From Clostridia bacterium (GTDB lineage: Bacteria; Bacillota; Clostridia; Oscillospirales; CAG-272): a stretch of 64,000 nt of DNA. Under the pieces are notes generated by a model, which saw nothing but the letters and a program-made list of their open reading frames with translations, made no database searches and was not told the DNA's origin. The stretch lies in the NCBI GenBank assembly GCA_017399145.1, contig JAFQEG010000041.1, forward strand, positions 3,323 through 67,322. The letters are read 5' to 3'. Position 1 is the first letter of the stretch. Every line of letters starts with the position of its first letter. Positions 2 through 48,555 of the stretch are shown here, piece after piece. The position numbers and the translations under genes were made by a program.

Positions 2-1057
2 AAGGACATAGTCAAGAGAACAATAAGGGCCTTGCGTGGTGCTGACCCAATTGAGAGCCATATAAATACTATAACGGATTATACCTTCTTTTGGTTAATT
101 TCCTTGTACGACTACTATATGTACACAGGAGATAAGGAATTTCTGGAGGACATTTATACCGACGTTTTAGACGTGCTTGAATTCGTGGAGGGGCGACTAG
201 GCGAGGACGGAATGTTCGTAAGGCGTGAGGGAGATTGGGTGTTTATGGACTGGTCAACCTTCGATAGCGACGGACCTATGTGTGCCGAGCAAATTATGCT
301 AGCAAGAGCTTACGAGGCAGTTGAAGCTTGTGCAATAATAAATAAGGATAATCAGCTTGCTACTCACGCAAGAGAAAGGGCAGAATATATTAAGGGTCAA
401 GTTAATAAGCTATACTGGAATGACAAAAAGGGCGCCTTTGTTGACTCCTATACGTCAGGCAGAGAAAATGTAACAAGACACGCAAATATTCTTGCAATTC
501 TCTTTGATTACGTAAGCGAAGAAAGAAAGCAAAGCATAATTAAAAACGTAATTTATAACAAGGAAATAACACCTATTACAACCCCCTATTTTGAATTTTT
601 TGAGCTTGATGCTATGTGCAAAATAGGAGACCTTAAGTATATGACCGATATGCTGGAGTCCTACTGGGGAGGAATGCTTAGACTGGGAGCAACTACAATT
701 TGGGAGGAATTCGATCCCAAAAAGAGTGGAATAGAGCACTACGAAATGTACGGAGGCAAGTACGAAAAGAGCCTTTGTCACGCATGGGGCGCTTCCCCAA
801 TCTATCTTTTAGGTAAATATGCACTAGGAGTAAGACCAACAAAGGCTGGCTATGAGGAATATATAGTAGCGCCTAACAAAATGCCCTTTGGCAATTTTGA
901 GGGTAAGGTGCCAACGCCAAAAGGTGATGTATTTGTCAAAATTAGCGACACAGGGTGCACAATTTTATCACAAATAGACGGAGGAACGCTATTGCTAAAT
1001 GACAAATGCTATCCAATTGAAAAAAACAAAAAATTGCAAGTAAAATTTGAAAAATAA
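2..1057 (+). CDS. C-terminal part of an (alpha/alpha)6-barrel glycoside hydrolase, alpha-L-rhamnosidase (GH78)-like; 5' end is outside the window
   Basis: The reading frame is open from nt 2, so the listed TTG at 32 is not the real start. The product has six-hairpin glycosidase-like motifs (GDWVFMDW, ATTIWEEF, SLCHAWGASPIYLLGKY). A terminator follows. Confidence 0.6.
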   Translation, partial: KDIVKRTIRALRGADPIESHINTITDYTFFWLISLYDYYMYTGDKEFLEDIYTDVLDVLEFVEGRLGEDGMFVRREGDWVFMDWSTFDSDGPMCAEQIMLARAYEAVEACAIINKDNQLATHARERAEYIKGQVNKLYWNDKKGAFVDSYTSGRENVTRHANILAILFDYVSEERKQSIIKNVIYNKEITPITTPYFEFFELDAMCKIGDLKYMTDMLESYWGGMLRLGATTIWEEFDPKKSGIEHYEMYGGKYEKSLCHAWGASPIYLLGKYALGVRPTKAGYEEYIVAPNKMPFGNFEGKVPTPKGDVFVKISDTGCTILSQIDGGTLLLNDKCYPIEKNKKLQVKFEK

Positions 1058-35526: not shown

Positions 35527-35555
35527 TTGACTTTATTTTCCTTATATGTTAAAAT
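35527..35555 (+). promoter_or_regulatory. Sigma-A type promoter of the 7-gene ABC operon
   Basis: TTGACT (35527-35532), 17-nt spacer, TGtTAAAAT (-10 at 35550-35555). Lies about 75 nt upstream of the ATG at 35629. Confidence 0.6.
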
Positions 35556-35628: not shown

Positions 35629-38600
35629 ATGAGAAAGAGAGCGACAAGAGCACTGGCTATGCTTCTATGCTTAATAATGGTTTGCGCAACTATTGCCATT
35701 CCAGTTTCAGCTGCTAGCACCGGTAGCTCAACGGGAAATAAGGTCTCTATTTCTGATGTTAGTGAGATTTTGAACGCTATATCCTACACTAAGTACAGAG
35801 ATAGCATCCCGTCATTGAAGGTCGGCAACAAAGAGGTGCCACTTGACATATTCAATTATGAATACAAGTACACAGGCACAGCGCCATCAACCGACATCAC
35901 AAAAGACTACAATGGAGAGGAAAACACCTTGTACATTCCTGAAAAGGGAACAGTTACATGGTCCTTCCAAATCCCAGAGGGTGGTACTGGTAACTATACC
36001 ATCGAAATTGAATATTGCCACGCAACAAGCAAGGCGAACTCAATTGAAAGAATTTTCTATATCAACGGAGAGGTTCCATTCTCCGAGGCTCGTTCCATAG
36101 TTCTTTCAAAGGTTTGGGAATATCAATACCTAACCGATGACAAGGGCAACATAGTTTACAACGAGAACGGACAGCCTATGTTCGACATAGACAATAATGG
36201 AAACGATATTCGTCCAGTCGTTGGTATAGTTTCTGACCCAAATAAAAAGTGGGTTACATACGCAATTAGCGACTCAAACGGCTATGAGATTCACCCATTC
36301 CAATTCTACTTTGAGGAGGGTGCAAACACAATCTCTATGGAAAGCCAAAGAGAGCCTGTTATAATTAGGTCCATTAAGCTTGTACCATACAACAACCTTC
36401 CAAGCTATGAAAGCTACATACAACAAATCTTGAACAAGGTTGGTGGAACACTTGAGAGCAACAGAGTAACCGAGCAAATGATAAAGGATGCTATCAACAA
36501 GGGTAACATTATTATCGAGGCTGAGGCACCAGATAGAGTTTCAGCAGTTACTATGTACCCAGTTTACGATAGAACCTCTTCTATCACAAGTGGTGTTACA
36601 GGTCCACAATCTGCAGTTGTTACAAAGTACAACACAGCAGGTAAGGAGCAATGGCAAAACGTTGGTGAGTGGATGACCTATACCTTCAAGGCGCCAGCAA
36701 CAGGCTTCTATTCTATTTCTGTAAGATACAAGCAAGCCCTACTTAGTGGTATGTTTGTTTCAAGAAGATTGTACATCAATGGTGAAATTCCATTTGAGGA
36801 AGCAAACAACTGTCGTTTCCCATTTGCAGACCAATGGCAAACAATATTCCTAGGCGACGGAAATAAGACCTTCGAGTTTTATTTCGAGGAGGGCAAGGAA
36901 TACGAGCTTAAGCTAGAGGCAGTTTTAGGTGAAGAAATGGGTGCCGAGATTGAAAAGGTAAACGAGGCGCTTTCAGTAATCAACAACTGCTACCTTGAAA
37001 TCCTAAAGCTTACAGGTAGTGATCCTGACGCAAACCGTGACTACGACTTTGCAAGAGTAATGCCAGGCGTTATGCGTGATATGTTTGACCAATTCGTAAA
37101 CCTTAAGGGCGTTTATACAAGAATGGTTGCAAGCTCAGGTAAGGGCGAAAAGACATCAACAATTGAACAGGTTTATCTGTTGCTAGAAAAAATGGCAAAG
37201 GACGAAAAGCAGATACCTGGAAACCTTCAAACACTAAAATCCAATATCGGTTCACTCGGTACTTGGGTAAATAGTGCAAAGACTCAACCACTACAGGTTG
37301 ACCTTTATAGCGTTCAATCAATCGACAGTGCAGTCCCACAGGGCTCATCAGGCTTCTTTGCATCTCTTTGGTACGAGATTCAGCTATTCTTTGCAAGCTT
37401 CACAATCGACTATAATGACCTCGGTGGTGGTAGCGAGGAAGGCGTAGTTGGCGAAGACCACAAGGTAGATGTTTGGGTTGCAACAGGTCGTGACCAAGCA
37501 CAAATTATAAGAAACCTCATTGATAATAATTTCTCACAGGTAGCGGGACACGAGGGAATTAAGGTTAGCTTGAAGCTTATTTCAGGTGGTACACTTCTTC
37601 CATCTGTTCTTGCAGGCTCAGGTCCTGACGTTGCGCTTATGGAATCAAGCACAATGATTATCGACTATGCGCTTCGTGATGCTGTATATCCATTAAACGA
37701 GTTTATCGAAAAGGATACAGTATATGATGAAAAGGGTAATGTGGTAAGTAGCCCATTGGATGCGTTCCCAGATGCAGCTATGATTCCTCTTACACTTCAC
37801 GACTACGATATGAAGACAGACACAACCTATAAGAATTACTATGGCTTGCCAGATTCCTTAACCTTCCCAATGATGTTCTATCGTAAGGACGTTTTGGCAT
37901 CTCTTGAGCTTTCAGTACCAGAAACATGGGATGATATGCTTTCTATCCTACCTGTATTACAATACAACAACATGGAAATCGGTATTCAAAACGATATCTA
38001 TACATTTATATATCAAAGCGGTAATGAGGCTTACTCAAACAAGGGTATGTCAATCAACTTTGACGACCAGGGCGTACTAAACGCATTTACAAAGATGTGT
38101 AATATGTACACTCAATACTCACTACCATACACCTTTGATTTTGCAAACCGTTTCAGAACAGGTGAAATGCCAATCGGTATCGCACCATATACAACATGTA
38201 ACCAGCTCGCAGTATTCGCATCTGAGCTATCAGGTCTATGGACCTTCGTTCCAATGCCAGGCTATGAGTTGACAAATGAAGACGGTGAAACCTACATTAA
38301 TAACTGCGCTATTGCAACAGTTACAGGATGCTTAATGCTCAACGGCTGTGACAATAGAGAGGACACTTGGAAGTTTATGAAGTGGTACACCGCTAAGGAT
38401 TTCCAGGTTGCATATTCAAACGAAATCGTATCCATTATGGGTATTGCAGCAAGACCTGCAACAGCAAACTCTGAGGCAATCAGAGAGCTTCCTTGGACAA
38501 CAGAGGAGGCAGATAACATTCTTGCTCAATTTGAAAACCTTACAGCAGTTGAAAACCACCCAGGTAGCTATTACCTAGCTCGTTATATCAGCTTCGCATT

Positions 38601-39024
38601 CCTAGCTGCATACAACGAGGGCAAGGACCCAGCTGACGCACTTCTTTCATATGTTAATACTATTAACGCAGAAATTGAAAGAAGAAGAGAAGAATTTAAA
38701 AACGACGTAGCAGACGACGACCCCAATAAGAGATATATGTACACAGTTGCAGAGCTTGATGCATATTTACTTGCTGAGGGTACTGATAGCTATGAAGCGT
38801 TCCTTGACAATCTTGCCAAGGATGAGGCTAAGTACAACGAGTACGTAAAGACCTCACAAATTTATGAGCGCTACTTAGAAAAGCAAGAGGAATACGTAAC
38901 CTCAAGCGAGTACGAAAGCTACCTTGAAGCTCTTGCTAGCAACCAAGCAGAATTCGAAAAGTACAAGAAGGAATCCAGAATGTACGCTCGTTATCTTGAA
39001 TTGGTTGTAAACGTAGAAGACTAA
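35629..39024 (+). CDS. Giant secreted protein: two CBM-like beta-sandwich modules fused to a family-1 extracellular solute-binding domain
   Basis: Signal peptide ending VSA-AS with no lipobox. Internal duplication: GTVTWSFQIPEGGTGNYTIEIEYCHA...RIFYINGEVPFSEA versus GEWMTYTFKAPATGFYSISVRYKQA...RRLYINGEIPFEEA. SBP-like segment VDVWVATGRDQAQIIRNLIDNNF...LLPSVLAGSGPDVAL. The C-terminal tail has three Y-x-x-YLE repeats. Confidence 0.75.
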   Translation: MRKRATRALAMLLCLIMVCATIAIPVSAASTGSSTGNKVSISDVSEILNAISYTKYRDSIPSLKVGNKEVPLDIFNYEYKYTGTAPSTDITKDYNGEENTLYIPEKGTVTWSFQIPEGGTGNYTIEIEYCHATSKANSIERIFYINGEVPFSEARSIVLSKVWEYQYLTDDKGNIVYNENGQPMFDIDNNGNDIRPVVGIVSDPNKKWVTYAISDSNGYEIHPFQFYFEEGANTISMESQREPVIIRSIKLVPYNNLPSYESYIQQILNKVGGTLESNRVTEQMIKDAINKGNIIIEAEAPDRVSAVTMYPVYDRTSSITSGVTGPQSAVVTKYNTAGKEQWQNVGEWMTYTFKAPATGFYSISVRYKQALLSGMFVSRRLYINGEIPFEEANNCRFPFADQWQTIFLGDGNKTFEFYFEEGKEYELKLEAVLGEEMGAEIEKVNEALSVINNCYLEILKLTGSDPDANRDYDFARVMPGVMRDMFDQFVNLKGVYTRMVASSGKGEKTSTIEQVYLLLEKMAKDEKQIPGNLQTLKSNIGSLGTWVNSAKTQPLQVDLYSVQSIDSAVPQGSSGFFASLWYEIQLFFASFTIDYNDLGGGSEEGVVGEDHKVDVWVATGRDQAQIIRNLIDNNFSQVAGHEGIKVSLKLISGGTLLPSVLAGSGPDVALMESSTMIIDYALRDAVYPLNEFIEKDTVYDEKGNVVSSPLDAFPDAAMIPLTLHDYDMKTDTTYKNYYGLPDSLTFPMMFYRKDVLASLELSVPETWDDMLSILPVLQYNNMEIGIQNDIYTFIYQSGNEAYSNKGMSINFDDQGVLNAFTKMCNMYTQYSLPYTFDFANRFRTGEMPIGIAPYTTCNQLAVFASELSGLWTFVPMPGYELTNEDGETYINNCAIATVTGCLMLNGCDNREDTWKFMKWYTAKDFQVAYSNEIVSIMGIAARPATANSEAIRELPWTTEEADNILAQFENLTAVENHPGSYYLARYISFAFLAAYNEGKDPADALLSYVNTINAEIERRREEFKNDVADDDPNKRYMYTVAELDAYLLAEGTDSYEAFLDNLAKDEAKYNEYVKTSQIYERYLEKQEEYVTSSEYESYLEALASNQAEFEKYKKESRMYARYLELVVNVED

Positions 39025-39056
39025 GCTTCGAAAATACTAGAAGAAGGAGAATGTAA

Positions 39057-40124
39057 ATGGACGAACGTAATAATAATGTTGAAAATGACGTTTTAGTTGA
39101 CGACCAAAACGTTGAAAAAGCAGATTTACATGTAGAAGGTATTGTCGAAGATAATAGCCCAAAGGGTAATAAGGTAGCAAAGCCAAAGAAAAAGAAGGCA
39201 ATTGCAAGAAAAGATATGACCATGGCACAATGGACATGGCACGAAATGAAGAGAAATAAGGTTGCTTACCTTATGATTCTTCCATTTATGCTTGTATTCA
39301 TACTTTTCACAGTATTCCCAGTAGGACTTTCACTTGTACTCAGCTTTACAAACTTCAATATGCTATCCTTTAGCTGGGATATGTTTATTGGAATTGATAA
39401 CTATCTAAGATTGTTCTTCGAGGACGATATATTCCTACTCGCATGTAAGAACACCTTAGTATTCGCAATGATAACAGGACCTGTATCCTATATCCTTTCA
39501 TTCTTGGTTGCGTGGTTCATCAATGAGCTACCACCAAGAGTAAGAGCAGTGGTTACCCTTGTATTCTACGCACCATCAATTTCAGGTGCCGTATATACAA
39601 TTTGGGGTGTGCTTTTCTCAAACGACTCATATGGTTGGGTAAACGGTACACTTATGGATTTGGGCTTTATCGACTCCCCAATCCTTTGGTTCTATGACGA
39701 AAACTATGCAATGCCACTTTGTATCGTAGTTGCACTTTGGATGTCACTCGGTACGGCATTCCTTTCATTCATCGCAGGTCTTCAAACAATCGACAAGAGC
39801 TTGTTTGAGGCTGCAGCGGTTGACGGTATCAAGAACAGATGGCAGGAGCTATGGTACATTACCTTGCCTATGATGAGACCTCAGCTAATGTTCGGTGCGG
39901 TTATGGCTATCACAAGCTCATTCGGCTTTGGTGGTGTTGTTACAGCACTTTGTGGCTTCCCATCAGTAAACTATTCGTGTCATACAATTATGCACTGTCT
40001 AGATGACTATGGTAACCAACGTTGGGAGGTAGGTTATGCCTCCGCAATAGCCTTTGTGCTATTCTTAATTATGATTGGCGCTAACACGCTAGTTAATAAA
40101 ATGCTATCGAAGGTAGGACAATGA
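39057..40124 (+). CDS. Carbohydrate ABC transporter permease, MalF-type (pair 1), with an acidic N-terminal extension
   Basis: Six TM helices, YLMILPFMLVFILFTVFP start and EAA loop EAAAVDGIKNRWQELWYITLPMMRP. Confidence 0.88.
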   Translation: MDERNNNVENDVLVDDQNVEKADLHVEGIVEDNSPKGNKVAKPKKKKAIARKDMTMAQWTWHEMKRNKVAYLMILPFMLVFILFTVFPVGLSLVLSFTNFNMLSFSWDMFIGIDNYLRLFFEDDIFLLACKNTLVFAMITGPVSYILSFLVAWFINELPPRVRAVVTLVFYAPSISGAVYTIWGVLFSNDSYGWVNGTLMDLGFIDSPILWFYDENYAMPLCIVVALWMSLGTAFLSFIAGLQTIDKSLFEAAAVDGIKNRWQELWYITLPMMRPQLMFGAVMAITSSFGFGGVVTALCGFPSVNYSCHTIMHCLDDYGNQRWEVGYASAIAFVLFLIMIGANTLVNKMLSKVGQ

Positions 40125-40125
40125 T

Positions 40126-40998
40126 ATGCAAAAAATGAGAGTTAGAAATCATCAAGTTGTCCTCAACCGTTCGGTAGGAGGCGACGCAGGAATATTTTTC
40201 TTCCTTGCAATAATGGGAGCATTTATGTTCCTTCCTATGATATATGTAGTGGTACAATCCTTTAAGCCTCTTGATGAGCTATGGATGTTCCCACCTAAGT
40301 TTATCGTTATGAAACCTACACCTAAAAACTATGTAGACCTATTTACCTTGCTTAGTGATTCATGGGTTCCATTTTCGAGATACATATTCAACACAGTATT
40401 AATTACAGCTGCTGGTACCTTTGGTAACCTTGTATTATCATCACTTGCAGCTTATGCGGTATCAAAAATACCATTCCCAGGCAGAAAAGGCGTGTTCTGG
40501 ATTATTCAACGTTCACTTATGTTTACGTCCACAGTAACCGCTATTGCAAACTTTATGACATTGACAAGACTAGGACTTATGGATAACCCCTTAGCACTTA
40601 TTATTCCTGCGTGGGGCTCAACTATGGGTCTTTACCTAATGAAGCAGTTTATGGACTCCTCAATTTCCGATGCGGTGCTAGAAAGTGCCCGACTTGACGG
40701 ATGTAGTGAGTTTAGGACCTTCTGGACCATAGCAATGCCAATGGTTAAGCCTGCTTGGCTAACATTGATTATTTATTCATTCCAAGGCCTATGGAACACA
40801 GGTGCCTCTGCATACATATATAGTGAGCAGTGGAAAACCCTTAACTATGCTATCACTCAGATTACCGCAGGCGGTATCGCCCGTGCAGGTGCATCTGCTG
40901 CCGGCTCAGTTCTTATGATGATTGTTCCTATTCTTGTATTCGTAATATCACAAAGTAATATTATTGAAACAATGGCATCTAGTGGTATGAAGGATTAA
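40126..40998 (+). CDS. Carbohydrate ABC transporter permease, MalG-type (pair 1)
   Basis: EAA loop ESARLDGCSEFRTFWTIAMPMVKP. Starts 1 nt after the preceding stop. Confidence 0.88.
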   Translation: MQKMRVRNHQVVLNRSVGGDAGIFFFLAIMGAFMFLPMIYVVVQSFKPLDELWMFPPKFIVMKPTPKNYVDLFTLLSDSWVPFSRYIFNTVLITAAGTFGNLVLSSLAAYAVSKIPFPGRKGVFWIIQRSLMFTSTVTAIANFMTLTRLGLMDNPLALIIPAWGSTMGLYLMKQFMDSSISDAVLESARLDGCSEFRTFWTIAMPMVKPAWLTLIIYSFQGLWNTGASAYIYSEQWKTLNYAITQITAGGIARAGASAAGSVLMMIVPILVFVISQSNIIETMASSGMKD

Positions 40999-41014
40999 GG
41001 AGGGTAATGAGTAT

Positions 41015-43183
41015 ATGAATAAATTAGTAAGAATCATTTCCTTCGCCTTTGTATTGCTATTCGTTTTCGCAACAGTGATATCAGCTGCAACACCTTATGC
41101 TACCTATACTTATTCAATAGACGGCTTAGTGCTTGATTCACCTGATGCATACGTGCCATACGGCGACGGACCAATCACATCTGCAATCCTAGGACTTGAT
41201 AAGCCTATGCAGGACCCATCTGATATTGAATCAGATGCCAATGAAAACATTTATATTGCCGACAAGGGTAATAACAGAATTATCGTAACCAACAAGTTTT
41301 ACGAGGTTAAATATATAATTGAAAAGTTTACAAACTACGACGGAGTAGAGGATACCTTTAAATCCCCAGTTAGCACCTTTGTAGTTGACGACGGCGCCTA
41401 TAAGGGACTTTACGTTTGCGATAAGGACAACAAGAGAATTGTAGTATTCGACCAAGATACAGGCTTCCTTAAAAAGGTGTTTAACGAGCCTGAGATTGAA
41501 TTTGAGGACGACAACTCAGGCTATTCACCTGTAAGCTGTGTAGTTGACCAACACGGTAGAATTTACGTTGTTTCCGATAAAACAACAAAGGGTATCATAG
41601 TATTAACACCTAATGGTGACTTCATCAACTTTATCGGTGCACCAAAGGTTTCCGTTTCTGCTATGGAAAGCTTGCTACAAATCGTAAACCCAAATGCAGC
41701 ATCAAACATTTCACACGCAGCAACACCATACTCAAAGCTTGACCTTGATAATATGTCAAGAGACTTCGTTTATGGTACAGTTGTTTACACAACAGACGAC
41801 GACCAAAAGAACCAACAATCAGCAATCACAAGCAAAAATCCTGACTATGCGCCAGTAAGACTTCTCAATGCAAGTGGTAACGACATTATGCAAAGAAATG
41901 GCTTCTTCGCACCAGCAGGTGAGGTTGCGGTTGCTAAGACAGGCCCAACAACAGCTATCAATAAGAATGCACCTACCGGTGTTTCCTCAGTAGTTGACGT
42001 TGCAAGTGGTCGAGACGGAATTTGGTCAATCATTGACAACAAGCGTTCAAAGGTTTATACCTACGACCAAAACGGTAACCTACTTTACATCTTCGGTGAC
42101 GCAGGTGATAAATTCGGTAATATTTCAAAGGCGCAGGCTATTACATATCAGGGCGACAAGATAGTTGTACTTGACGTAACCTCACTTTCCTTTACCGTTT
42201 ACAGACAAACAGAGTATGCTAAAAAGCTTTCACAGGCTATTAGATATCAAAATGAAAGAAACTTTGACAAGGCAACAGAGGCATGGCAAGAGGTTCTAGC
42301 ATGGAACAACAACTTCGACACTGCTTACGTTGAAATGGGTAAGGCACTCTTCCGTGATAATCAACCTGAAAAGGCTCAAGAATACTTTATGAATGCCTTC
42401 GATACAGAAAACTATGCAGAGGCATTTAAGCAAACTCGTGCAAACCAAATGAAAATCTGGTTTATTCCTTTAATTATATTAGTAGTAGTATTGCTCATTG
42501 GTGTTGTTTACCTATTCAAGTGGGCAGGCAAGGTTAATAAGGCAACAGCTACTAAGGGTGGCAAGCGTACCTTCCTTGAGGAATTTATGTTCGGCTTCCA
42601 CTTGATGTTCCACCCATTCGATGGATATTGGGACCTAAAGCACGAAAAGCGTGGCTCAGTAAGAGCATCTATCGTTTACATTGTTTTAACAATCCTTGCA
42701 TTCTACTGGCAATCAGTAGGTCAGGGCTATTACTACAACCCACAAAATGTAACCAGTACAATATTTGCACAGGCATCATCAATTTTGATTCCTTTGTTCC
42801 TATGGATTATTGCTAACTGGTGCTTTACAACATTGTTTGATGGAGAGGGTAGCTTTAAGGATATCTTTATCGCAACCTCATACGGCTTATTCCCAGTACC
42901 TGCACTTGTAGTAGTTTCTACAATACTTACAAACTTCCTAGTTGGTACAGAGGCACAAATTACAACAATGATTGTAACTATTGCATACATTTGGATGGCA
43001 TTCCTAATTGTTATTGGTATGCAGGTAACACACGACTACTCAATGGGCAAGAATATTCTTACCGTAATAGCGACACTTGTTGGTATGATATTCATTATGT
43101 TTATTGCAGTATTGTTCACATCACTTATTTCTAAGATGACATCACTTGTAACAACAATTATAAGTGAATTAAGCTACAGGTAA
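41015..43183 (+). CDS. Fusion membrane protein: signal peptide, NHL-repeat beta-propeller, TPR-like segment, TM helix, then a Yip1-like 5-TM domain
   Basis: NHL-type blades (NIYIADKGNNRIIVTN, GLYVCDKDNKRIVVFDQ, GRIYVVSDKTTKGIIVLTPNG, SKVYTYDQNGNLLYIFG). TPR-like FDKATEAWQEVLAWNNNFDTAYVEMGKAL. TM helix IWFIPLIILVVVLLIGVVYLF. The polytopic C-domain starts FHLMFHPFDGYWDLK, read as Yip1-like from memory. Confidence 0.6.
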   Translation: MNKLVRIISFAFVLLFVFATVISAATPYATYTYSIDGLVLDSPDAYVPYGDGPITSAILGLDKPMQDPSDIESDANENIYIADKGNNRIIVTNKFYEVKYIIEKFTNYDGVEDTFKSPVSTFVVDDGAYKGLYVCDKDNKRIVVFDQDTGFLKKVFNEPEIEFEDDNSGYSPVSCVVDQHGRIYVVSDKTTKGIIVLTPNGDFINFIGAPKVSVSAMESLLQIVNPNAASNISHAATPYSKLDLDNMSRDFVYGTVVYTTDDDQKNQQSAITSKNPDYAPVRLLNASGNDIMQRNGFFAPAGEVAVAKTGPTTAINKNAPTGVSSVVDVASGRDGIWSIIDNKRSKVYTYDQNGNLLYIFGDAGDKFGNISKAQAITYQGDKIVVLDVTSLSFTVYRQTEYAKKLSQAIRYQNERNFDKATEAWQEVLAWNNNFDTAYVEMGKALFRDNQPEKAQEYFMNAFDTENYAEAFKQTRANQMKIWFIPLIILVVVLLIGVVYLFKWAGKVNKATATKGGKRTFLEEFMFGFHLMFHPFDGYWDLKHEKRGSVRASIVYIVLTILAFYWQSVGQGYYYNPQNVTSTIFAQASSILIPLFLWIIANWCFTTLFDGEGSFKDIFIATSYGLFPVPALVVVSTILTNFLVGTEAQITTMIVTIAYIWMAFLIVIGMQVTHDYSMGKNILTVIATLVGMIFIMFIAVLFTSLISKMTSLVTTIISELSYR

Positions 43184-43200
43184 AGGAGGAGGTCGCTAGT

Positions 43201-45645
43201 ATGAAAAATAGAATAATAGCACTCACCCTTGCCGTGTTAATGCTTATTCCTATGTTTGTAATGAATATAGGTGCAGAGAATGTTGAGCAAACAGCCGACT
43301 TCTCAAAGGAAGAGGCTCGCTTAGAGGCAGAAACAATGAATGTTTGTGCAGTAAGTGAAAATGGCTTGTACGAGCTTTGGTATGACGACACAACAGGTGA
43401 GCTTGCTGTAAGAAATACCAAAACTGATGAAATTACTCTATCCAATCACTACGATGCACAGGATATGGAAAGGGTAGGTAAGGACGGCACACCAATTAAA
43501 GCAACTGCAGAGAGACTTTCACAGGTATATCTAAACTATACCACAATAAAGTCTAACTCATCAACTCAGCTTAATAGCTATGAGCACTGTGTTTTCTATA
43601 AGAGACACACCTATGACACACTAAGACATGGTATAACAATTCACTATGTTTTCAAGTCAACCCCATCAGATGTGGACACCTTTAGCTTCTCGGTTAAATA
43701 TGAAATTACAAACGATGGCTTAAGGGCAAGCTTGCTTGGCTCAACTATTAAGTATGACAAAACAAAATACGTGCTAAACACAATTTCAATCTTGCCTGAC
43801 TTTAATGCCGCAAAGAGAACTGATAAGGGCTACACCTTTATTCCTGACGGTAGTGGCGCACTTGTTAGATTTGAGGATGTTTATGGCAAGAATATCCAAG
43901 TAATCATTTCTGAGGCTATGTATGGTAATGACTATGCATACTATCAGGTAGGTATTAAGAATTCTGAGCAATATACAATGCCAGTATTCGGCTTGGTAAA
44001 TAATTCCGTTGCAAACGGTACAGGCTTCTTCGCAATTATCGAGGAGGGTGATTCCTTTGCAATGCCAACATCAGCACACAACATAATGACCAACTCAGCA
44101 TATGCAGTATTTAAGATTACACCATCTGACGTTTACGACCTTGCAAAGTTTGATAAAAACGGCACACAAAGTAACTCATCAATGTCAATCACCTCTGCAT
44201 ATGATTACAAGGGTAATTATACAGTAAACTACAAGCTTTTAACTGCTGATGAAACTGCTAAGGCTAATAACCTTACAGACACGTACGACACAAGCTATAT
44301 GGGTATGGCACAGTATTACAGAGATTACCTCGTTAAAAATGGTAGCCTAAAGAAAAATGAAAAGATTGAAGAGGATGTTAAGCTTTTCATTGAGGTATTC
44401 GGCTCAATCGAGGTTGACGATAAGGTGCTTACATTCCCAGTTAGACGTAACAAGCCACTTACAACCTTTGCTGATGTAAAGGCAATGCAACAATATTTCA
44501 CAAATGCTGAGGAAAATGAAATAACTAGCATTAAGAATATGTCCTTTATTCTAAAGGGCTTTGCAAACGGTGGTATTTTGTCCAACTATCCAACAAAAAT
44601 GAAGTGGCAAAAGGATGTAGGAGGCTACAACGGACTCGTTGACCTTATTAAGGATTCTCAAGATAAGGGCTACGAGGTTACTCCAGACGTAGATTTCGTA
44701 TATTCCTATGGCACAACGTGGTTTAGTGGCTATTCTAACGATAAGAATGGTGTAAGAACACTAGACAATCGTTTCACAACAAAGCGTATTTACTACGCTT
44801 CAACACAAACCTTTGAGCGTACAGGTGGCGTTGCAGTATCAAGTGCATCATTTGTGTACCTATACGATAAATTCTTCAATTCTATTAAGGATATAGAATT
44901 TACAACTCTAGCAACAAGAACACTTGGCTCTGACTTAAACTCTGACTTTGATAAGGATGAGTTTTACGACAGAGAATCATCAAAGAATAACACCGTAGCC
45001 CTTCTTAAGGCACTTACAGGTGCAAACGATAGAAAGGCTTACAATCTAATTGTTAATGCGGGTAACTCTTACGCAATCCCTTATGCAAGCACAGTTTTGA
45101 GTGCAGCACTTGATAGCTCACGCCGTACAAATGCAAGCGAGGCAATTCCATTCCTAGGTCTTGTATATCACGGCTCAATAGAGTATGCAGGTAATGCTCT
45201 TAACACAGAGGGTGACAGCAAGTATATGTTCCTAAAGGCACTTGAAAATGGTGCATCACTTTACTACACACTTGCAATGCAAAACTATGAATATTTGAAG
45301 TTTAATGAGGAATATAACCAATATTACTCAATAAGCTACGAAAATCTAAAGGATACAATTCTTGAAACCTATAAGGAATACAACGAGCTTATGAAGGGCA
45401 AGCAAGACGATTACATCGTTGAGCACGCATTCATGAACACAGAGTATGGCTACAACGTAAAAAGAGCTGAGGACAACAAAGAACTTAACAACTCACTAGT
45501 TGTGCTCGTTGTTTACGAGGACGGAGAAGGCTTTATTCTTAACTACAACGACTATGCAGTAGTAGTTGAGTACGAGGGCACAACCTATAACGTTGATGGC
45601 TTAGGTTATGCAAGATATACTAAAACAACACAGGAGGTAGAGTAA
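43201..45645 (+). CDS. Secreted 814-aa protein of unknown function (possibly DUF5696-like)
   Basis: Signal peptide MKNRIIALTLAVLMLIPMFVMNIGA. No catalytic motif that I recognise. The DUF5696 assignment comes only from recalling that such proteins are annotated next to YIP1-family and sugar permease genes. Confidence 0.4.
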   Translation: MKNRIIALTLAVLMLIPMFVMNIGAENVEQTADFSKEEARLEAETMNVCAVSENGLYELWYDDTTGELAVRNTKTDEITLSNHYDAQDMERVGKDGTPIKATAERLSQVYLNYTTIKSNSSTQLNSYEHCVFYKRHTYDTLRHGITIHYVFKSTPSDVDTFSFSVKYEITNDGLRASLLGSTIKYDKTKYVLNTISILPDFNAAKRTDKGYTFIPDGSGALVRFEDVYGKNIQVIISEAMYGNDYAYYQVGIKNSEQYTMPVFGLVNNSVANGTGFFAIIEEGDSFAMPTSAHNIMTNSAYAVFKITPSDVYDLAKFDKNGTQSNSSMSITSAYDYKGNYTVNYKLLTADETAKANNLTDTYDTSYMGMAQYYRDYLVKNGSLKKNEKIEEDVKLFIEVFGSIEVDDKVLTFPVRRNKPLTTFADVKAMQQYFTNAEENEITSIKNMSFILKGFANGGILSNYPTKMKWQKDVGGYNGLVDLIKDSQDKGYEVTPDVDFVYSYGTTWFSGYSNDKNGVRTLDNRFTTKRIYYASTQTFERTGGVAVSSASFVYLYDKFFNSIKDIEFTTLATRTLGSDLNSDFDKDEFYDRESSKNNTVALLKALTGANDRKAYNLIVNAGNSYAIPYASTVLSAALDSSRRTNASEAIPFLGLVYHGSIEYAGNALNTEGDSKYMFLKALENGASLYYTLAMQNYEYLKFNEEYNQYYSISYENLKDTILETYKEYNELMKGKQDDYIVEHAFMNTEYGYNVKRAEDNKELNNSLVVLVVYEDGEGFILNYNDYAVVVEYEGTTYNVDGLGYARYTKTTQEVE

Positions 45646-45648
45646 AAT

Positions 45649-47502
45649 ATGAAGAAATCAGTAAGACTCGTATGTGGCTCTAGCTCCGCATCAAAAAATC
45701 ATGTAACAGTACCTGTTTCCGTAAATGGAAAGAAGGTAGAATTCACCAACGAGGAGCTTGAAAAGCTTCTCAAGGTGAACCAACAAGCACCGGTTGAGGA
45801 ACCAATTGTTGAGGAAACTCCAGTAGTTGACGAAGCGCCAGCTGAGGAAGAACCAATTATTGAGGAAATTCCAGTAGTTGACGAAGCACCAGCTGAGGAA
45901 GAGCCAATTATCGAGGAAATTCCAGAAGTTGACGAATCACCAGCTGAGGAAGAGCCAGTTATTGAGGAAATTCCAGTAGTTGACGAAGCACCAGCTGAGG
46001 AAGAACCAGTTATCGAGGAGATTCCAGTAGTTGACGAAGTCCCAGCCGAGGAAGAACCGGTTGTTGAGGAAATTCCAGTAGTTGACGAAGCACCAGTTGA
46101 GGAAGAGCCAGTTATCGAGGAAATTCCAGCAGTTGACGAAGCACCAGCTGAGGAAGAGCCAATTATCGAGGAAATTCCAGAAGTTGACGAAGCACCAGCT
46201 GAGGAAGAGCCAGTTATCGAGGAAATTCCAGTAGTTGACGAAGCACCAGCTGAGGAAGAACCAATTATCGAGGAAATTCCAGTAGCTGACGAAGTACCAG
46301 CTGAGGAAGAGCCAGTTATCGAGGAAATTCCAGTAGTTGACGAAGCACCAGCTGAGGAAGAACCAATTGTCGAGGAAACTCCAGTAGTTGACGAAGTACC
46401 AGCTGAGGAAGAACCAATTGTTGAGGAAACTCCAGTAGTTGACGAAGTTCAATCCGAGGAAGAGCCAGTTGTTGAGGAAAATCCAATAGCTGTCGAGGAA
46501 CCAATTGCTGCACCGGTAGTAGCTGAAGAAACGCCAATGGTTGAAAAGGAGCCAGTTGTTCATCCAAAGAAAAAGCAAAAGAGAGGGCTTTCACTAACTA
46601 CTAAGAGGTCGCTTTCAGGTTGGCTATTCGTTTTACCATTCGTTATTGGTATTTTGTTCATTTACGCACCAATCGTATTCGATTCTGTAAGATTCACATT
46701 TATGGACAGTACGTCCTTGTATAGTGGCTCAGGACTTGAATTTGTAGGTTGGGAAAACTACAATTACATTTTCAACAAGGACCCATGGTTCTCAATCACG
46801 ATCGTTGACGGTCTTAAGGATTTGATACTTCAAATTCCTGCAATTGTAATATTCGCTCTCTTTATGGCTATTATTCTTAACCAAAAGATGAGAGGAAGAA
46901 CTGTATTCCGTGCAATCTTCTTCCTACCTGTTATTCTTTGTACAGGTATCATTGATACAATTGATACAAACTCTGCATTTATGAGCCAAGTTGAAAACTC
47001 TCAAGGTGGCATTGACGACAACACAGGTGCAGAATCAGAGGGAATTATGTCAGCCCTAGACATTGAAATGCTTCTATCTAATATCAAAATGGGTAGTGAG
47101 CTAGTTGACATTGTAACAACACTTATTAACAATATCTTTGATATCGTAAGCCGTTCAGGTGTACAAATGCTTATCTTCCTATCAGGCTTGCAATCTATCT
47201 CACCAGCGATTTATGAATCCTGTCAGGTAGAGGGCGCAACCGCTTGGGAAACCTTCTGGAAGATAACACTTCCAATGATAAGCCCAATGATTCTTGTAAA
47301 CGCAGTTTACACAGTAATCGACTTGTTTACAGCTGCAGATAACCGTGTAATGTCCTACATATTCGGTAGCCAAATTTATGGTAAGAGTATGTTTGCAGAG
47401 GCAGGCGCAATGGCTTGGGTATACATAGGTATCGTACTTGTATTTATTGTACTGGTAGCAATATTACTAAAATCGGTAGTATTCTATCAGAGAAGAGACT
47501 AA
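45649..47502 (+). CDS. Carbohydrate ABC transporter permease, MalF-type (pair 2), with a ~300-aa N-terminal extension containing 17-aa acidic tandem repeats
   Basis: The permease core starts after KKKQKRGLSLTTKRSLSGWLFVLPF. EAA loop ESCQVEGATAWETFWKITLPMISP. The N-terminal region is (EEPVIEEIPVVDEAPAE)n. Confidence 0.85.
   Translation: MKKSVRLVCGSSSASKNHVTVPVSVNGKKVEFTNEELEKLLKVNQQAPVEEPIVEETPVVDEAPAEEEPIIEEIPVVDEAPAEEEPIIEEIPEVDESPAEEEPVIEEIPVVDEAPAEEEPVIEEIPVVDEVPAEEEPVVEEIPVVDEAPVEEEPVIEEIPAVDEAPAEEEPIIEEIPEVDEAPAEEEPVIEEIPVVDEAPAEEEPIIEEIPVADEVPAEEEPVIEEIPVVDEAPAEEEPIVEETPVVDEVPAEEEPIVEETPVVDEVQSEEEPVVEENPIAVEEPIAAPVVAEETPMVEKEPVVHPKKKQKRGLSLTTKRSLSGWLFVLPFVIGILFIYAPIVFDSVRFTFMDSTSLYSGSGLEFVGWENYNYIFNKDPWFSITIVDGLKDLILQIPAIVIFALFMAIILNQKMRGRTVFRAIFFLPVILCTGIIDTIDTNSAFMSQVENSQGGIDDNTGAESEGIMSALDIEMLLSNIKMGSELVDIVTTLINNIFDIVSRSGVQMLIFLSGLQSISPAIYESCQVEGATAWETFWKITLPMISPMILVNAVYTVIDLFTAADNRVMSYIFGSQIYGKSMFAEAGAMAWVYIGIVLVFIVLVAILLKSVVFYQRRD
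45796..46509 (+). repeat. In-frame 51-bp tandem repeat: 13 near-perfect copies plus 1 degenerate copy
   Basis: Units start at 45796 and every 51 nt up to 46458. Consensus is GAGGAAGAGCCAGTTATCGAGGAAATTCCAGTAGTTGACGAAGCACCAGCT. A degenerate 14th unit runs to about 46509. Confidence 0.95.
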
Positions 47503-47514
47503 GGAGGGGTAGAA

Positions 47515-48555
47515 ATGGAAACTGTTAAGGTTAAAAGAGAAACCAAAAACAAAATCCGTGTAGATTTTGAAAGAGCCCCACTTGGCGAAAGATTGAAGGC
47601 AAAGTTTTTGTCAATGCACTTCTTAAAGAATGTAGTATTCGTTATATTTAGATTTGTTCTATTGCTTGGCGTATCCTACGTAATTCTTTATCCATACATT
47701 ACAAAGATTTTCGGTTCATTTATGAACCCAGCAGACTTTGAGGACGTAACAGTTGTACTTCTTTCAAAGTCACCAAACATTCATCAGTATCAAGCAATCA
47801 TTTCGGAAAACGGATATCTAATGGCACTGTTAAATACGTTTTTAGTATCCATTTCCGTAGCACTATTGCAGACACTTGTATGCGCCCTTGTAGCTTATGG
47901 CCTTGCAAAGTTCAAGTTTAAGGGAAACAACATTGTTTTCTTCCTTGTTATCTTTACAATGATGGTACCACAAGAGGCAATCAAGTTTGCAATGCAACAC
48001 TTCTTTAACTATTTTGGCTCAAACAACCTATTTGGTATGCTACTAAGCTCCATGGGAATAATAGAGTACGGCTTTATTGATACAATATTCCCACTCTATA
48101 TGCTATCTCTATTTGGACTTGGCTTTAAAAATGGCTTGTTTATCTTCATGCTAAGACAGTTCTTTAGAGGCGTACCTGATGAGCTTGAGGAGTCAGCATA
48201 CGTTGACGGCTCCAACACCTTTAGAACCTTCTTTAGTATTATTATTCCACTTGCAATTCCAATGCTAATCACAGTATTTATATTCGCATTTGCATGGCAA
48301 TGGACAGACGACTTCTATTCATCTATATTCTTCTCAAAGGGATACTTCGAAAAAGAGGGCGCAATGCAATTTATGAGTAGTGTAGCGACTAAGATACCAC
48401 CTTCATTGAAGGCGCAGGCTGAATCAATAACGCTTTACGGCTCTGCAATTACAGGCACCTCATCAATTCTCGTGGCATTGCCATTGATTATTGCATACGT
48501 ATTCCTACAGAATAAGATTGTTCAAGGTATCGAGCGTAGTGGTATTGTAGGTTAA
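47515..48555 (+). CDS. Carbohydrate ABC transporter permease, MalG-type (pair 2)
   Basis: EAA loop ESAYVDGSNTFRTFFSIIIPLAIP. Six TM helices with a long loop after TM1. Confidence 0.85.
   Translation: METVKVKRETKNKIRVDFERAPLGERLKAKFLSMHFLKNVVFVIFRFVLLLGVSYVILYPYITKIFGSFMNPADFEDVTVVLLSKSPNIHQYQAIISENGYLMALLNTFLVSISVALLQTLVCALVAYGLAKFKFKGNNIVFFLVIFTMMVPQEAIKFAMQHFFNYFGSNNLFGMLLSSMGIIEYGFIDTIFPLYMLSLFGLGFKNGLFIFMLRQFFRGVPDELEESAYVDGSNTFRTFFSIIIPLAIPMLITVFIFAFAWQWTDDFYSSIFFSKGYFEKEGAMQFMSSVATKIPPSLKAQAESITLYGSAITGTSSILVALPLIIAYVFLQNKIVQGIERSGIVG

Follow-up and report, generated by a model that had tools for sequence, protein, structure and literature searches.

The window (the whole stretch of 64,000 nucleotides that was analysed) holds a gene in which an NHL beta-propeller, a TPR-like segment, a transmembrane (TM) helix and a Yip1 membrane domain are joined. 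This gene belongs to the invariant core of a cassette of seven to eight genes, widespread in Gram-positive bacteria and read here as serving the uptake of sugar polymers. The genes of the cassette follow each other in the order: giant solute-binding protein (SBP), permease A, permease B, propeller/TPR/TM plus Yip1 protein, DUF5696 protein, permease C and permease D. A survey of 80 related species genomes, seeded with the 722-residue protein of the window, revealed the same seven genes in this one order in every locus with enough flanking sequence; the order is conserved down to 43% identity, and all seven reading frames are intact in 61 loci. The SBP gene (SBP1) comes first in every locus examined. 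The cassette is apparently new to the literature: no paper describing this gene arrangement was found, nor any on DUF5696 under that name, and searches joining Yip1 with ABC transporters and solute-binding proteins, or covering YIP1 family proteins or NHL repeats with ABC and Paenibacillus, returned nothing relevant to it.

Table 1. Features of the propeller/Yip1 gene and of the surrounding operon, in window coordinates
Feature	Coordinates	Strand	Description
Promoter-like site TTGACT-17-TAAAAT with TG extension	35527..35555	+	candidate; consensus scan only
Giant solute-binding protein SBP1	35629..39024	+	1131 aa; SBP_bac_1 at 640-926 (Pfam)
ABC permease A	39057..40124	+	355 aa; MalF/UgpA-like, BPD_transp_1
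ABC permease B	40126..40998	+	290 aa; MalG/UgpE-like
NHL-propeller/TPR/TM/Yip1 gene	41015..43183	+	722 aa plus stop
Signal peptide	41015..41086	+	residues 1-24, ...VISA/AT; hydropathy, sequence; model helix 3-23
Six-bladed NHL beta-propeller, predicted extracellular	41195..42208	+	residues 61-398; Pfam, PDB profile matches, AF2, Foldseek
TPR-like helical segment	42209..42448	+	residues 399-478; four helices at 400-461; Pfam, profile, AF2
TM helix 1	42461..42523	+	residues 483-503; hydropathy, AF2
Basic cytoplasmic linker	42524..42658	+	residues 504-548; motif FHPFDG(Y/F)WDLKxEKRGS; alignments
Yip1 membrane domain, five TM helices	42659..43180	+	residues 549-722; Pfam PF04893, AF2, alignment
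DUF5696 protein	43201..45645	+	814 aa; N-terminal signal or anchor; Pfam PF18952, E=1e-116
ABC permease C	45649..47502	+	617 aa; permease core C-terminal, long N-terminal repeat extension
ABC permease D	47515..48555	+	346 aa

The seven genes of the window are separated by gaps of 1-32 nt, and the propeller/Yip1 gene has a strong Shine-Dalgarno sequence (AAGGAGG) overlapping the stop codon of the upstream permease gene. Its place between two permease pairs of an ABC operon, as read by the first-pass annotation, is confirmed by the neighbours on both sides (Table 1). SBP1 possesses a signal peptide without a lipobox and a long N-terminal extension. The combination of an SBP_bac_1 protein with MalF/MalG-like BPD_transp_1 permease pairs is that of a CUT1-type importer operon. 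The operon contains no ATPase gene; a single ATPase of MalK type lies at another place in the genome (an OB_MalK-containing 371-aa frame, C21:28198-28365). Permease D is not followed by a second SBP of lipoprotein type, either here or in 77 of the 80 closest loci, and no glycoside hydrolase was found in the immediate flanks of this copy. A BspA-type LRR surface protein is encoded downstream of it, and the genome that holds the cassette measures 1.83 Mb.

The open reading frame and the domain order proposed from the letters alone stood up to analysis. Hydropathy delimits (i) a signal peptide ending in ISA/AT; (ii) the first TM helix; (iii) a stretch rich in lysine and arginine; and (iv) a polytopic domain. 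All five blade motifs quoted in the first-pass annotation are present in the translation, which matches NHL (PF01436) with 29 bits (cut-off 20). A family profile matches the NHL propellers TRIM71, Thin, Brat, Pizza and PknD (1rwi) with E values from 1e-25 to 1e-12, and in Foldseek the propeller retrieves six-bladed NHL domains (TRIM71, Brat, TRIM2, PknD) with target-normalised TM scores of about 0.72-0.77. The AlphaFold2 (AF2) model of the whole protein (pLDDT 79) predicts six four-stranded blades, agreeing with the earlier count of about six. Two helical inserts (216-231 and 261-273) interrupt the modelled propeller; residues 285-325 are without modelled secondary structure, and a loop near 299-306 is of low confidence. 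As a single sequence, the TPR-like segment scores below the Pfam thresholds at 401-461, with 23.2 for TPR_2 (cut-off 27) and 24.5 for TPR_Slam (cut-off 35.2), and its family profile strongly matches consensus TPR proteins, the homologues themselves bearing TPR calls. A long modelled helix (464-513) includes the first TM segment and is followed by two short cytoplasmic helices at 520-543.

The membrane domain at the C-terminus matches Yip1 (PF04893) over residues 529-697 with E=4.2e-15 and 56.5 bits (cut-off 28.6), covering profile positions 2-170 of 173, and PF04893 is also called in all homologues listed. Its five modelled helices lie at 549-569, 583-607, 614-639, 644-673 and 677-721, and the alignment reveals conserved NWC(F/L)TTLFDGEG and THDY motifs. 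Neither the sequence profile nor the leading fold matches, most of which stem from the propeller, yielded a solved Yip1 structure. The presence of the signal peptide and of the first TM helix followed by the K/R-rich stretch would place the propeller outside the cell, as had been proposed, and the same basic linker would place the N-terminal side of the Yip1 domain in the cytoplasm. By hydropathy and model, the propeller is thus predicted to face outwards and the Yip1 domain to be preceded by a cytosolic segment. Pfam and NCBIfam indicate no kinase, cyclase, DNA-binding or other output domain in the protein.

The association with the ABC genes is strict. It was also recovered independently of the seed: each of the 18 full-length DUF5696 genes sampled from different families across the class lies within the cassette, whereas neither of two fetched short DUF5696-like genes (about 570 aa) does. 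Among 300 genomes of the class Clostridia, the propeller/Yip1 protein and full-length DUF5696 occur together in 62. The former is found without the latter in five, three of which carry a DUF5696 truncated where a contig ends, and the reverse case is limited to one fragmented assembly. The cassette is present in about a fifth of the sampled genomes, with up to four copies per genome. The same arrangement also occurs in Paenibacillus sp., in Cohnella and on one Halanaerobiales contig, and most of the distant cassettes have a lipoprotein SBP as an additional last gene. Strict synteny and phyletic co-occurrence indicate that the propeller/Yip1 gene is not an unrelated hitch-hiker, and that explanation was ruled out. 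Random occurrence of the fusion with respect to ABC loci, named in the first-pass annotation as grounds for refutation, is contradicted both by the 80 species genomes and by the 18 loci found through DUF5696. The other two grounds named there, a C-terminal domain unlike Yip1 and a propeller in the cytoplasm, are contradicted by the Pfam match and by the predicted topology.

The fusion of propeller and Yip1 is real but is not what defines the unit. In 9 of the 18 cassettes of the DUF5696-seeded set two neighbouring genes encode the propeller/TPR/TM part and the Yip1 part separately, and in every case the junction follows closely on the first TM helix, within the cytoplasmic linker; in the 300-genome sample both forms are common. 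Splitting at the same junction in about half of the distant cassettes indicates that the fusion is one form of an obligate two-part unit. Fusions of the cassette-type Yip1 domain were surveyed in 150 cluster representatives, the best of 2043 that match it. Nearly all of these 150 proteins end with the Yip1 domain or only a few residues beyond it, two exceptions appearing truncated; its N-terminal partner is either absent (proteins of about 200-226 aa) or of propeller type, and none of them joins Yip1 to a permease, DUF5696 or SBP.

Conservation was computed over 59 orthologous cassettes. The mean identity is 71% for permease A, 73% for permease B and 56% for permeases C/D, followed by the propeller/Yip1 protein with 51%, the SBP with 48% and DUF5696 with 41%. 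Within the 722-residue protein, the linker stretch 506-548, whose motif includes the invariant residues H533, P534, D536, G537 and W539, is the most conserved segment (70% identity); the Yip1 TM helices reach 56%, the propeller 46% and the first TM helix, the lowest segment, 29%. For the cytoplasmic linker, such conservation resembles that of a site in contact with conserved machinery; the propeller, judged by its identity values, is not hypervariable. The propeller residues conserved family-wide fit the structural NHL repeat pattern and not a metal-binding centre.

The AF2 model of the DUF5696 protein (pLDDT 82, pTM 0.86) predicts an N-terminal beta-sandwich and a (beta/alpha)8 barrel similar to those of GH129, GH101 and GH31. 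Its leading Foldseek matches are 5opq (5e-30) and 5wzn (4e-24), within a range of 1e-30 to 1e-24, and are followed by GH101, GH31 and GH36 members. Among the acidic residues compared in 23 diverse cassettes, E682 alone is invariant, while D244 is present in at least 90%. The cassette SBPs are 900-1250 aa long. In the cassettes compared, SBP1 and DUF5696 are mostly without a lipobox, whereas the second SBP, where present, has the form of a canonical lipoprotein. The flanks of related cassettes hold hydrolases of very different kinds (GH3, GH9, GH10, GH26+CBM35, GH30, GH38, GH43, GH85 and GH106, plus an esterase) and separate regulators, namely histidine kinase/AraC pairs and GntR/LacI-type proteins.

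The cassette is best read as a twin CUT1-type glycan importer in which the obligate two-part unit, fused in the window, most likely acts as a non-catalytic accessory hub; to this reading we give slightly more than even credence. The importer would take up oligosaccharides released from complex glycans, presumably powered by an ATPase of the MsmK/MalK type whose gene lies at another place in the genome. Together with the strongly conserved cytoplasmic motif, the Yip1 membrane domain would associate with the permease/ATPase assembly, and the propeller/TPR ectodomain would keep the giant SBP and/or the DUF5696 protein beside the two translocators. Such a tether is proposed because neither of these proteins carries a lipid anchor here; conversely, their N-terminal hydrophobic segments could serve as uncleaved anchors, which would make a tether unnecessary. 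We infer both the association with the transporter and the binding partner of the propeller from gene neighbourhood and conservation. The role of sensor, scaffold or substrate handler suggested at first can accordingly be narrowed in part: a scaffolding or substrate-handling role coupled to transport would fit best, and a sensor is the least supported, since the protein has no output domain and the propeller was judged no more variable than the membrane domain, the SBP and DUF5696 varying most.

Three other readings were weighed against the accessory hub. The unit may be a ligand-gated regulator of transport, whose propeller binds a glycan or a breakdown product and switches the permease/ATPase through the Yip1 domain and linker, without transcriptional output. 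Extracellular NHL propellers do serve as sensors, PknD (1rwi) being matched here by both profile and fold, and the position of the gene between two permease pairs and the strong conservation of the cytoplasmic linker would suit such a switch. This is nevertheless unlikely: a kinase, cyclase or DNA-binding output is missing from the protein, the regulators seen near the cassettes are separate proteins, and the variation of the propeller does not reach that of the SBP and DUF5696, as it should if the propeller read the variable substrate. That the propeller is itself a surface enzyme, lactonase-, lyase- or esterase-like, trimming the substrate before uptake with Yip1 as a mere anchor, is improbable. 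The idea arises from the many homologues that also match PF08450 (SMP-30/gluconolactonase/LRE-like), from annotations such as 'gluconolactonase' or 'sugar lactone lactonase YvrE', and from Virginiamycin B lyase among the fold matches of the propeller. However, the best matches in sequence and fold are non-enzymatic NHL domains, and the residues conserved throughout the family follow the repeat pattern instead of forming a metal site. A simple anchor, moreover, needs neither a conserved five-TM Yip1 domain nor its persistence as a separate gene, and the diversity of the adjoining glycoside hydrolases speaks against a single fixed chemistry.

The remaining reading, an envelope maintenance or recycling machine for the wall or surface polysaccharide of the cell itself, with the propeller/Yip1 protein as a wall-facing scaffold, takes its appeal from the copy in the window, which lies next to neither a glycoside hydrolase nor a sugar regulator but has a BspA-type LRR surface protein downstream, and which is kept despite the small genome (1.83 Mb). 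It must be regarded as highly improbable, given that BPD_transp_1 permeases with SBP_bac_1 proteins are importers and that most related cassettes adjoin hydrolases of plant glycans or N-glycans together with sugar-responsive regulators; the presence of up to four paralogous cassettes in some genomes fits diversified nutrient specificities.

Several known systems resemble parts of the accessory hub and its importer. Eukaryotic Yip1/YIPF proteins serve vesicle traffic, in which their partners are Rab GTPases. These Golgi proteins share with the 722-residue protein PF04893, a five-helix membrane domain and a cytosolic N-terminal segment, whereas Rab GTPase partners do not exist in this bacterium. 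M. tuberculosis PknD (1rwi) likewise has an extracellular six-bladed NHL propeller carried by a single TM helix; in contrast to its cytoplasmic Ser/Thr kinase, a conserved linker of 45 residues leads here to the Yip1 domain. The usual description of a Gram-positive ABC sugar importer comprises one binding protein, a pair of permeases and an ATPase. Like the CUT1 importers MalEFGK2 and MsmEFGK, the latter type with a shared MsmK-like ATPase, the cassette combines an SBP_bac_1 protein with MalF/MalG-like pairs, lacks an ATPase gene of its own, a MalK-type ATPase being encoded at another place in the genome, and has glycoside hydrolases and sugar regulators near related loci. It differs from CUT1 loci in the two permease pairs per operon, the SBP of 900-1250 aa without a lipobox, and the obligate propeller/TPR/Yip1 unit and DUF5696 protein, always situated between the permease pairs. 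The resemblance to the Sus-like systems of Bacteroidota is a functional analogy only: in both, a fixed core for binding and processing at the surface accompanies a transporter, with varied glycoside hydrolases adjoining, but no parts are homologous, one membrane is present instead of two, and an ABC importer takes the place of a TonB-dependent transporter.

The closest precedent for the propeller/Yip1 unit, by family and operon setting, is YknW of B. subtilis. According to two reports (PMC4887032, PMC4338810), it is a Yip1-family accessory membrane protein that modulates the assembly of the YknXYZ ABC exporter, so that the earlier description of bacterial Yip1 proteins as essentially uncharacterised does not wholly hold. 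As portrayed there, YknW is, like the 722-residue protein, a bacterial polytopic Yip1-family protein encoded in an ABC operon and not the translocator itself; it is small and stand-alone, and is partnered by a membrane fusion protein and an exporter of MacB type. In addition, the 722-residue protein carries a 480-aa extracellular propeller/TPR module and is accompanied by type I importer permeases, a giant SBP and a glycosidase-like partner. The analogy is loose, since the MacB-type exporter belongs to a different ABC class.

A broader proposal, held tentatively and with a chance well short of even, is that the cassette encodes an unrecognised multi-subunit machine for glycan capture and import in single-membrane bacteria, functionally equivalent to Sus-like systems, in which the Yip1 hub joins two translocators and a shared ATPase while the propeller/TPR arm positions the unanchored SBP and DUF5696 proteins. 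If this were true, the precedent of YknW would extend to 'adaptor of ABC transporters' as a general bacterial role of the Yip1 family. The fixed arrangement departs from the usual importer in its two permease pairs, giant SBP, propeller/Yip1 unit and glycosidase-shaped protein, and is often present in several copies; its neighbours include enzymes that act on a wide variety of glycans from plants and hosts. Organisation of the machine by the propeller/Yip1 unit would (i) explain the retention of large unanchored proteins at the surface of fibre-degrading gut and soil Firmicutes; (ii) give bacterial Yip1 proteins a testable function; and (iii) provide a set of marker genes by which glycan-uptake loci of monoderm bacteria can be annotated. 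Cultured hosts exist (Paenibacillus, Mahella), which makes the question directly testable.

The orthologues of permease C are mostly 320-330 aa long, compared with 617 aa in the window. The SBP of the window ends in three YxxYLE repeats, which were considered as a docking site for the TPR-like segment and rejected as a general mechanism, since the motif is not conserved across cassettes. The SBP tails of 68 cassettes show a mean identity of 17%; many are without an extension, and many end in ...ALESY....

Through analysis of a predicted operon and its relatives, a seven-gene cassette has been recognised in the window, consisting successively of a solute-binding protein (SBP), permeases A and B, a propeller/Yip1 protein, a DUF5696 protein and permeases C and D. 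Judged from sequence, it would represent an ABC importer whose obligate accessory components are undescribed. The component families (Yip1, NHL, TPR, CUT1 permeases and SBP) are already known; in the literature, no paper was found on DUF5696, nothing relevant was found linking Yip1 or NHL proteins to ABC transport in such a cassette, and the fixed combination was not found described. The Yip1 part has its nearest precedent in YknW, and the NHL propeller displayed externally has its own in PknD.

Features of the operon and of the propeller/Yip1 protein (identity: mean to the window sequence over 59 orthologous cassettes)
Feature	Window position	Strand	Length or residues	Identity	Details
Promoter-like site	35527-35555				upstream of operon
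Operon	35629-48555				seven co-directional genes, gaps 1-32 nt
SBP, gene 1			1131 aa	48%	SBP_bac_1 domain, residues 640-926
SBP tail	38750-39024				helical, three YxxYLE motifs
Permease A, gene 2			355 aa	71%	MalF/UgpA-like
Permease B, gene 3			290 aa	73%	MalG/UgpE-like
Propeller/Yip1 protein, gene 4	41015-43183	+	722 aa	51%	
N-terminal helix			3-23		AlphaFold2 model
Segment after signal peptide	41087-41194		25-60		low-confidence modelling
Six four-stranded blades			61-398		AlphaFold2 model
Four TPR-type helices			400-461		AlphaFold2 model
Single long helix			464-513		AlphaFold2 model; includes hydrophobic stretch 483-503
Two short helices			520-543		AlphaFold2 model
Five long helices (Yip1 region)			549-721		AlphaFold2 model
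DUF5696 protein, gene 5			814 aa	41%	PF18952, E=1e-116
Permease C, gene 6	45649-47502		617 aa	56%	
Permease D, gene 7			346 aa	56%	

No terminator-like sites were seen within the operon on the scanned + strand, and the propeller/Yip1 gene has a strong ribosome-binding site (AAGGAGG) that shares bases with the stop codon of the permease gene before it. An ATPase gene is absent from the operon, and one MalK/MsmK-type ATPase frame is located on a different contig of the genome, which comprises 1.83 Mb in 44 contigs at about 76% completeness. This agrees with ATPase sharing, as in Firmicutes one ATPase is usually common to several CUT1 sugar importers. The SBP and DUF5696 protein of the window possess N-terminal hydrophobic segments and neither a lipobox nor a C-terminal anchor. 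Upstream of the operon lie recG and a ROK-family gene, downstream lies a gene for a BspA-type LRR protein, and no hydrolase gene adjoins this copy.

The first-pass annotation had proposed an extracellular NHL propeller joined to a Yip1-like domain inside an ABC operon. The reading frame was confirmed, and every quoted blade motif was found in its translation. The Yip1-like character of the C-terminus was borne out by a Pfam match (PF04893, residues 529-697, E-value 4.2e-15, score 56.5 bits, curated cut-off 28.6) covering the model almost entirely. The propeller is likewise supported by a PF01436-type NHL repeat above the Pfam cut-off and by the six modelled blades (mean pLDDT of the whole model 79), which Foldseek aligned to six-bladed NHL domains with a target-normalised TM of about 0.75; the TPR matches in Pfam are weak (residues 401-461). 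A profile of 36 family members matches solved NHL propellers (TRIM71, Thin, Brat, designed Pizza proteins and the PknD sensor domain 1rwi) as well as consensus TPR proteins. Hydropathy analysis indicates a signal peptide ending ISA/AT, and a lysine/arginine-rich stretch, KWAGKVNKATATKGGKR, follows the first transmembrane helix (TM1). The positive-inside rule predicts that propeller and TPR lie outside, as had been proposed, and that the linker is cytoplasmic. The segment following the signal peptide reads ATPYxTYTYSIDGxxLxSPDAYVP (highly conserved, with 57% identity and several invariant Tyr and Pro), and part of it may form the closing strand of the propeller.

Within the propeller/Yip1 protein, identity decreases from 70% in the cytoplasmic linker (residues 506-548; motif FHPFDG(Y/F)WDLKxEKRGS) to 56% in the Yip1 helices, 47% in the TPR, 46% in the propeller segment and 29% in TM1. 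Further conserved motifs, NWC(F/L)TTLFDGEG and THDY, are found at cytoplasmic helix ends in the predicted topology.

More than 3400 relatives of the propeller/Yip1 protein are present in a large protein collection, originating from Clostridia metagenome-assembled genomes and called, where the source gives a name, "YIP1 family protein" or "hypothetical protein". When one genome was scanned for each species, at least 585 relatives were confirmed, and among the best 80 loci, each with enough flank carries all seven genes in identical order and orientation (tblastn), down to 43% identity of the propeller/Yip1 protein; 61 of the loci have every one of the seven as an intact ORF. One orthologue, in a roe deer MAG (L069, 10001-12136), has an in-frame stop leaving an ORF of 569 aa, the cause being either pseudogenisation or faulty assembly. 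A complete cassette also occurs on a 14.7-kb contig from water deer colon (JAGARL010000319.1, L076) binned as the archaeon "Methanocorpusculum sp."; as its proteins share about 45% identity with those of Clostridia, contamination of that bin is the probable explanation.

The same arrangement was recovered from a separate seed. DUF5696 matches above cut-off occur in 88 of 300 genomes sampled from the class, often in 2-4 copies, and when 20 kb surrounding each of 20 matches from different families was analysed, all full-length genes (18/18) lay inside the cassette, while both short DUF5696-like genes (about 570 aa) lay outside it. In the same 300 genomes a family profile detected the propeller/Yip1 protein in 67 (42 of 178 genera), with full-length DUF5696 in 62 of them; in the remaining five the match lies on a short or cut contig, three with a truncated DUF5696 at the contig end. 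DUF5696 without the propeller/Yip1 protein was found in one genome, a fragmented one. The fixed order from two seeds and the phyletic co-occurrence show that the association with ABC genes is non-random, as had been supposed. Outside the class sample, NCBI-named homologues occur in Mahella, Paenibacillus, Cohnella, Tissierellaceae and Halanaerobiales, and one Paenibacillus and one Halanaerobiales contig show the same gene order. Full-length DUF5696 genes number four in some complete genomes; cassette genes surround the three copies examined in genome G040 (L115-L117) and the two in G257 (L118, L119), the latter separated by only about 3 kb. For one G040 copy, the best match bearing a name comes from Mahella sp., a cultured genus (85% identity), the sole ground for identifying that genome as Mahella.

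The proposed fusion is present in the window protein and is only one of two forms, both common in the 300-genome sample: propeller/TPR and Yip1 are separate adjoining genes in half (9/18) of the cassettes seeded on DUF5696. The split propeller/TPR protein (about 470-590 aa) ends with its own transmembrane helix and a short basic tail, the split Yip1 protein (about 205-250 aa) starts with HP(F)DG(F/Y), and the split point is always in the cytoplasmic linker directly after TM1. A profile of the Yip1 domain only, searched against 1.84 billion cluster representatives, gave 2043 matches (692 at E<=1e-30). Among the best 150 of these, the domain lies at or a few residues from the C-terminus in almost all, the proteins either measure about 200-226 aa or carry propeller-type N-terminal regions, and no further fusion partners were found. 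As the parts are separate in some cassettes and joined in the window, a Rosetta-stone-type indication of functional pairing, the sequences suggest that they act together.

By sequence, DUF5696 gave zero matches to solved structures. Its model (pLDDT 82, pTM 0.86) resembles GH129 enzymes, namely 3,6-anhydro-D-galactosidase (5opq, E=5e-30) and alpha-N-acetylgalactosaminidase NagBb (5wzn, E=4e-24), followed by GH101, GH31 and GH36, and a GH129-like fold is thus predicted. As to a possible catalytic activity of DUF5696, E682 is the sole invariant acidic residue in 23 diverse cassettes, and D244 is conserved in at least 90%. Across the 80 loci, DUF5696 length ranges from 814 aa (window) to 1993 aa (L034), apparently through variable C-terminal extensions. 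Related cassettes are flanked by GH3, GH9/GH5, GH10, GH26+CBM35, GH30, GH43, GH106, an apiosidase-like protein, a GDSL esterase, CBM4_9 proteins and histidine kinase/AraC response-regulator pairs, the setting expected for glycan-utilisation loci with varied substrates. The Halanaerobiales cassette (L134; 1900-5049, 19655-22148) lies between a GH38 alpha-mannosidase, accompanied by a GntR/LacI-type regulator, and a GH85 endo-beta-N-acetylglucosaminidase, which points to N-glycan use. A role of the cassette in envelope recycling is possible for the window's own copy; the gene surroundings of cassettes elsewhere do not favour it.

On the basis of sequence, predicted structure and gene context, from which all functional statements here derive, the best-supported role of the propeller/Yip1 protein is that of an accessory hub with proposed contacts. 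TM1 would act as a tether, the Yip1 part would sit in the membrane beside the translocators, the linker and Yip1 domain would touch conserved machinery (permeases or ATPase), and the propeller/TPR part would keep large extracellular partners in position. A ligand-gated regulator of transport is possible; the protein has no output domain and the conservation pattern does not favour it, the propeller varying less than the SBP and DUF5696 and so probably not being the main reader of a variable substrate. The only pointers to a catalytic propeller are weak SMP-30/gluconolactonase-type matches in homologues and one lyase among the fold matches, and such a role would leave the need for a conserved, separable Yip1 partner unexplained. 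The hub reading also fits a precedent in B. subtilis, where the Yip1-family protein YknW is reported to modulate how the YknXYZ ABC transporter is assembled (PMC4887032, PMC4338810).

The distribution of lipoboxes fits the accessory hub as well, the giant SBP and DUF5696 generally being without one and the optional second SBP mostly with one. This SBP (424-520 aa) is encoded by an eighth gene after permease D in most distant cassettes (loci L113, L115, L117, L118, L120, L122-L124, L127, L130, L131, L133 and L134), and most of eleven N-termini inspected (L113-L131 copies) have a canonical lipobox. The window lacks it, as do 77 of the 80 loci closest to it, so this clade combines two permease pairs with a single annotated binding protein. 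Permease C of the window has a long N-terminal extension, its first transmembrane helix starting only at about residue 320; orthologues mostly have 313-333 aa and are extended only in the closest relatives (L001, 749 aa; L002, 626 aa; L009, 503 aa). Many orthologous SBP tails end in ...A(L/F)ESY... and other SBPs are tail-less; with a mean tail identity of only 17%, any docking role of the tail would be lineage-specific.
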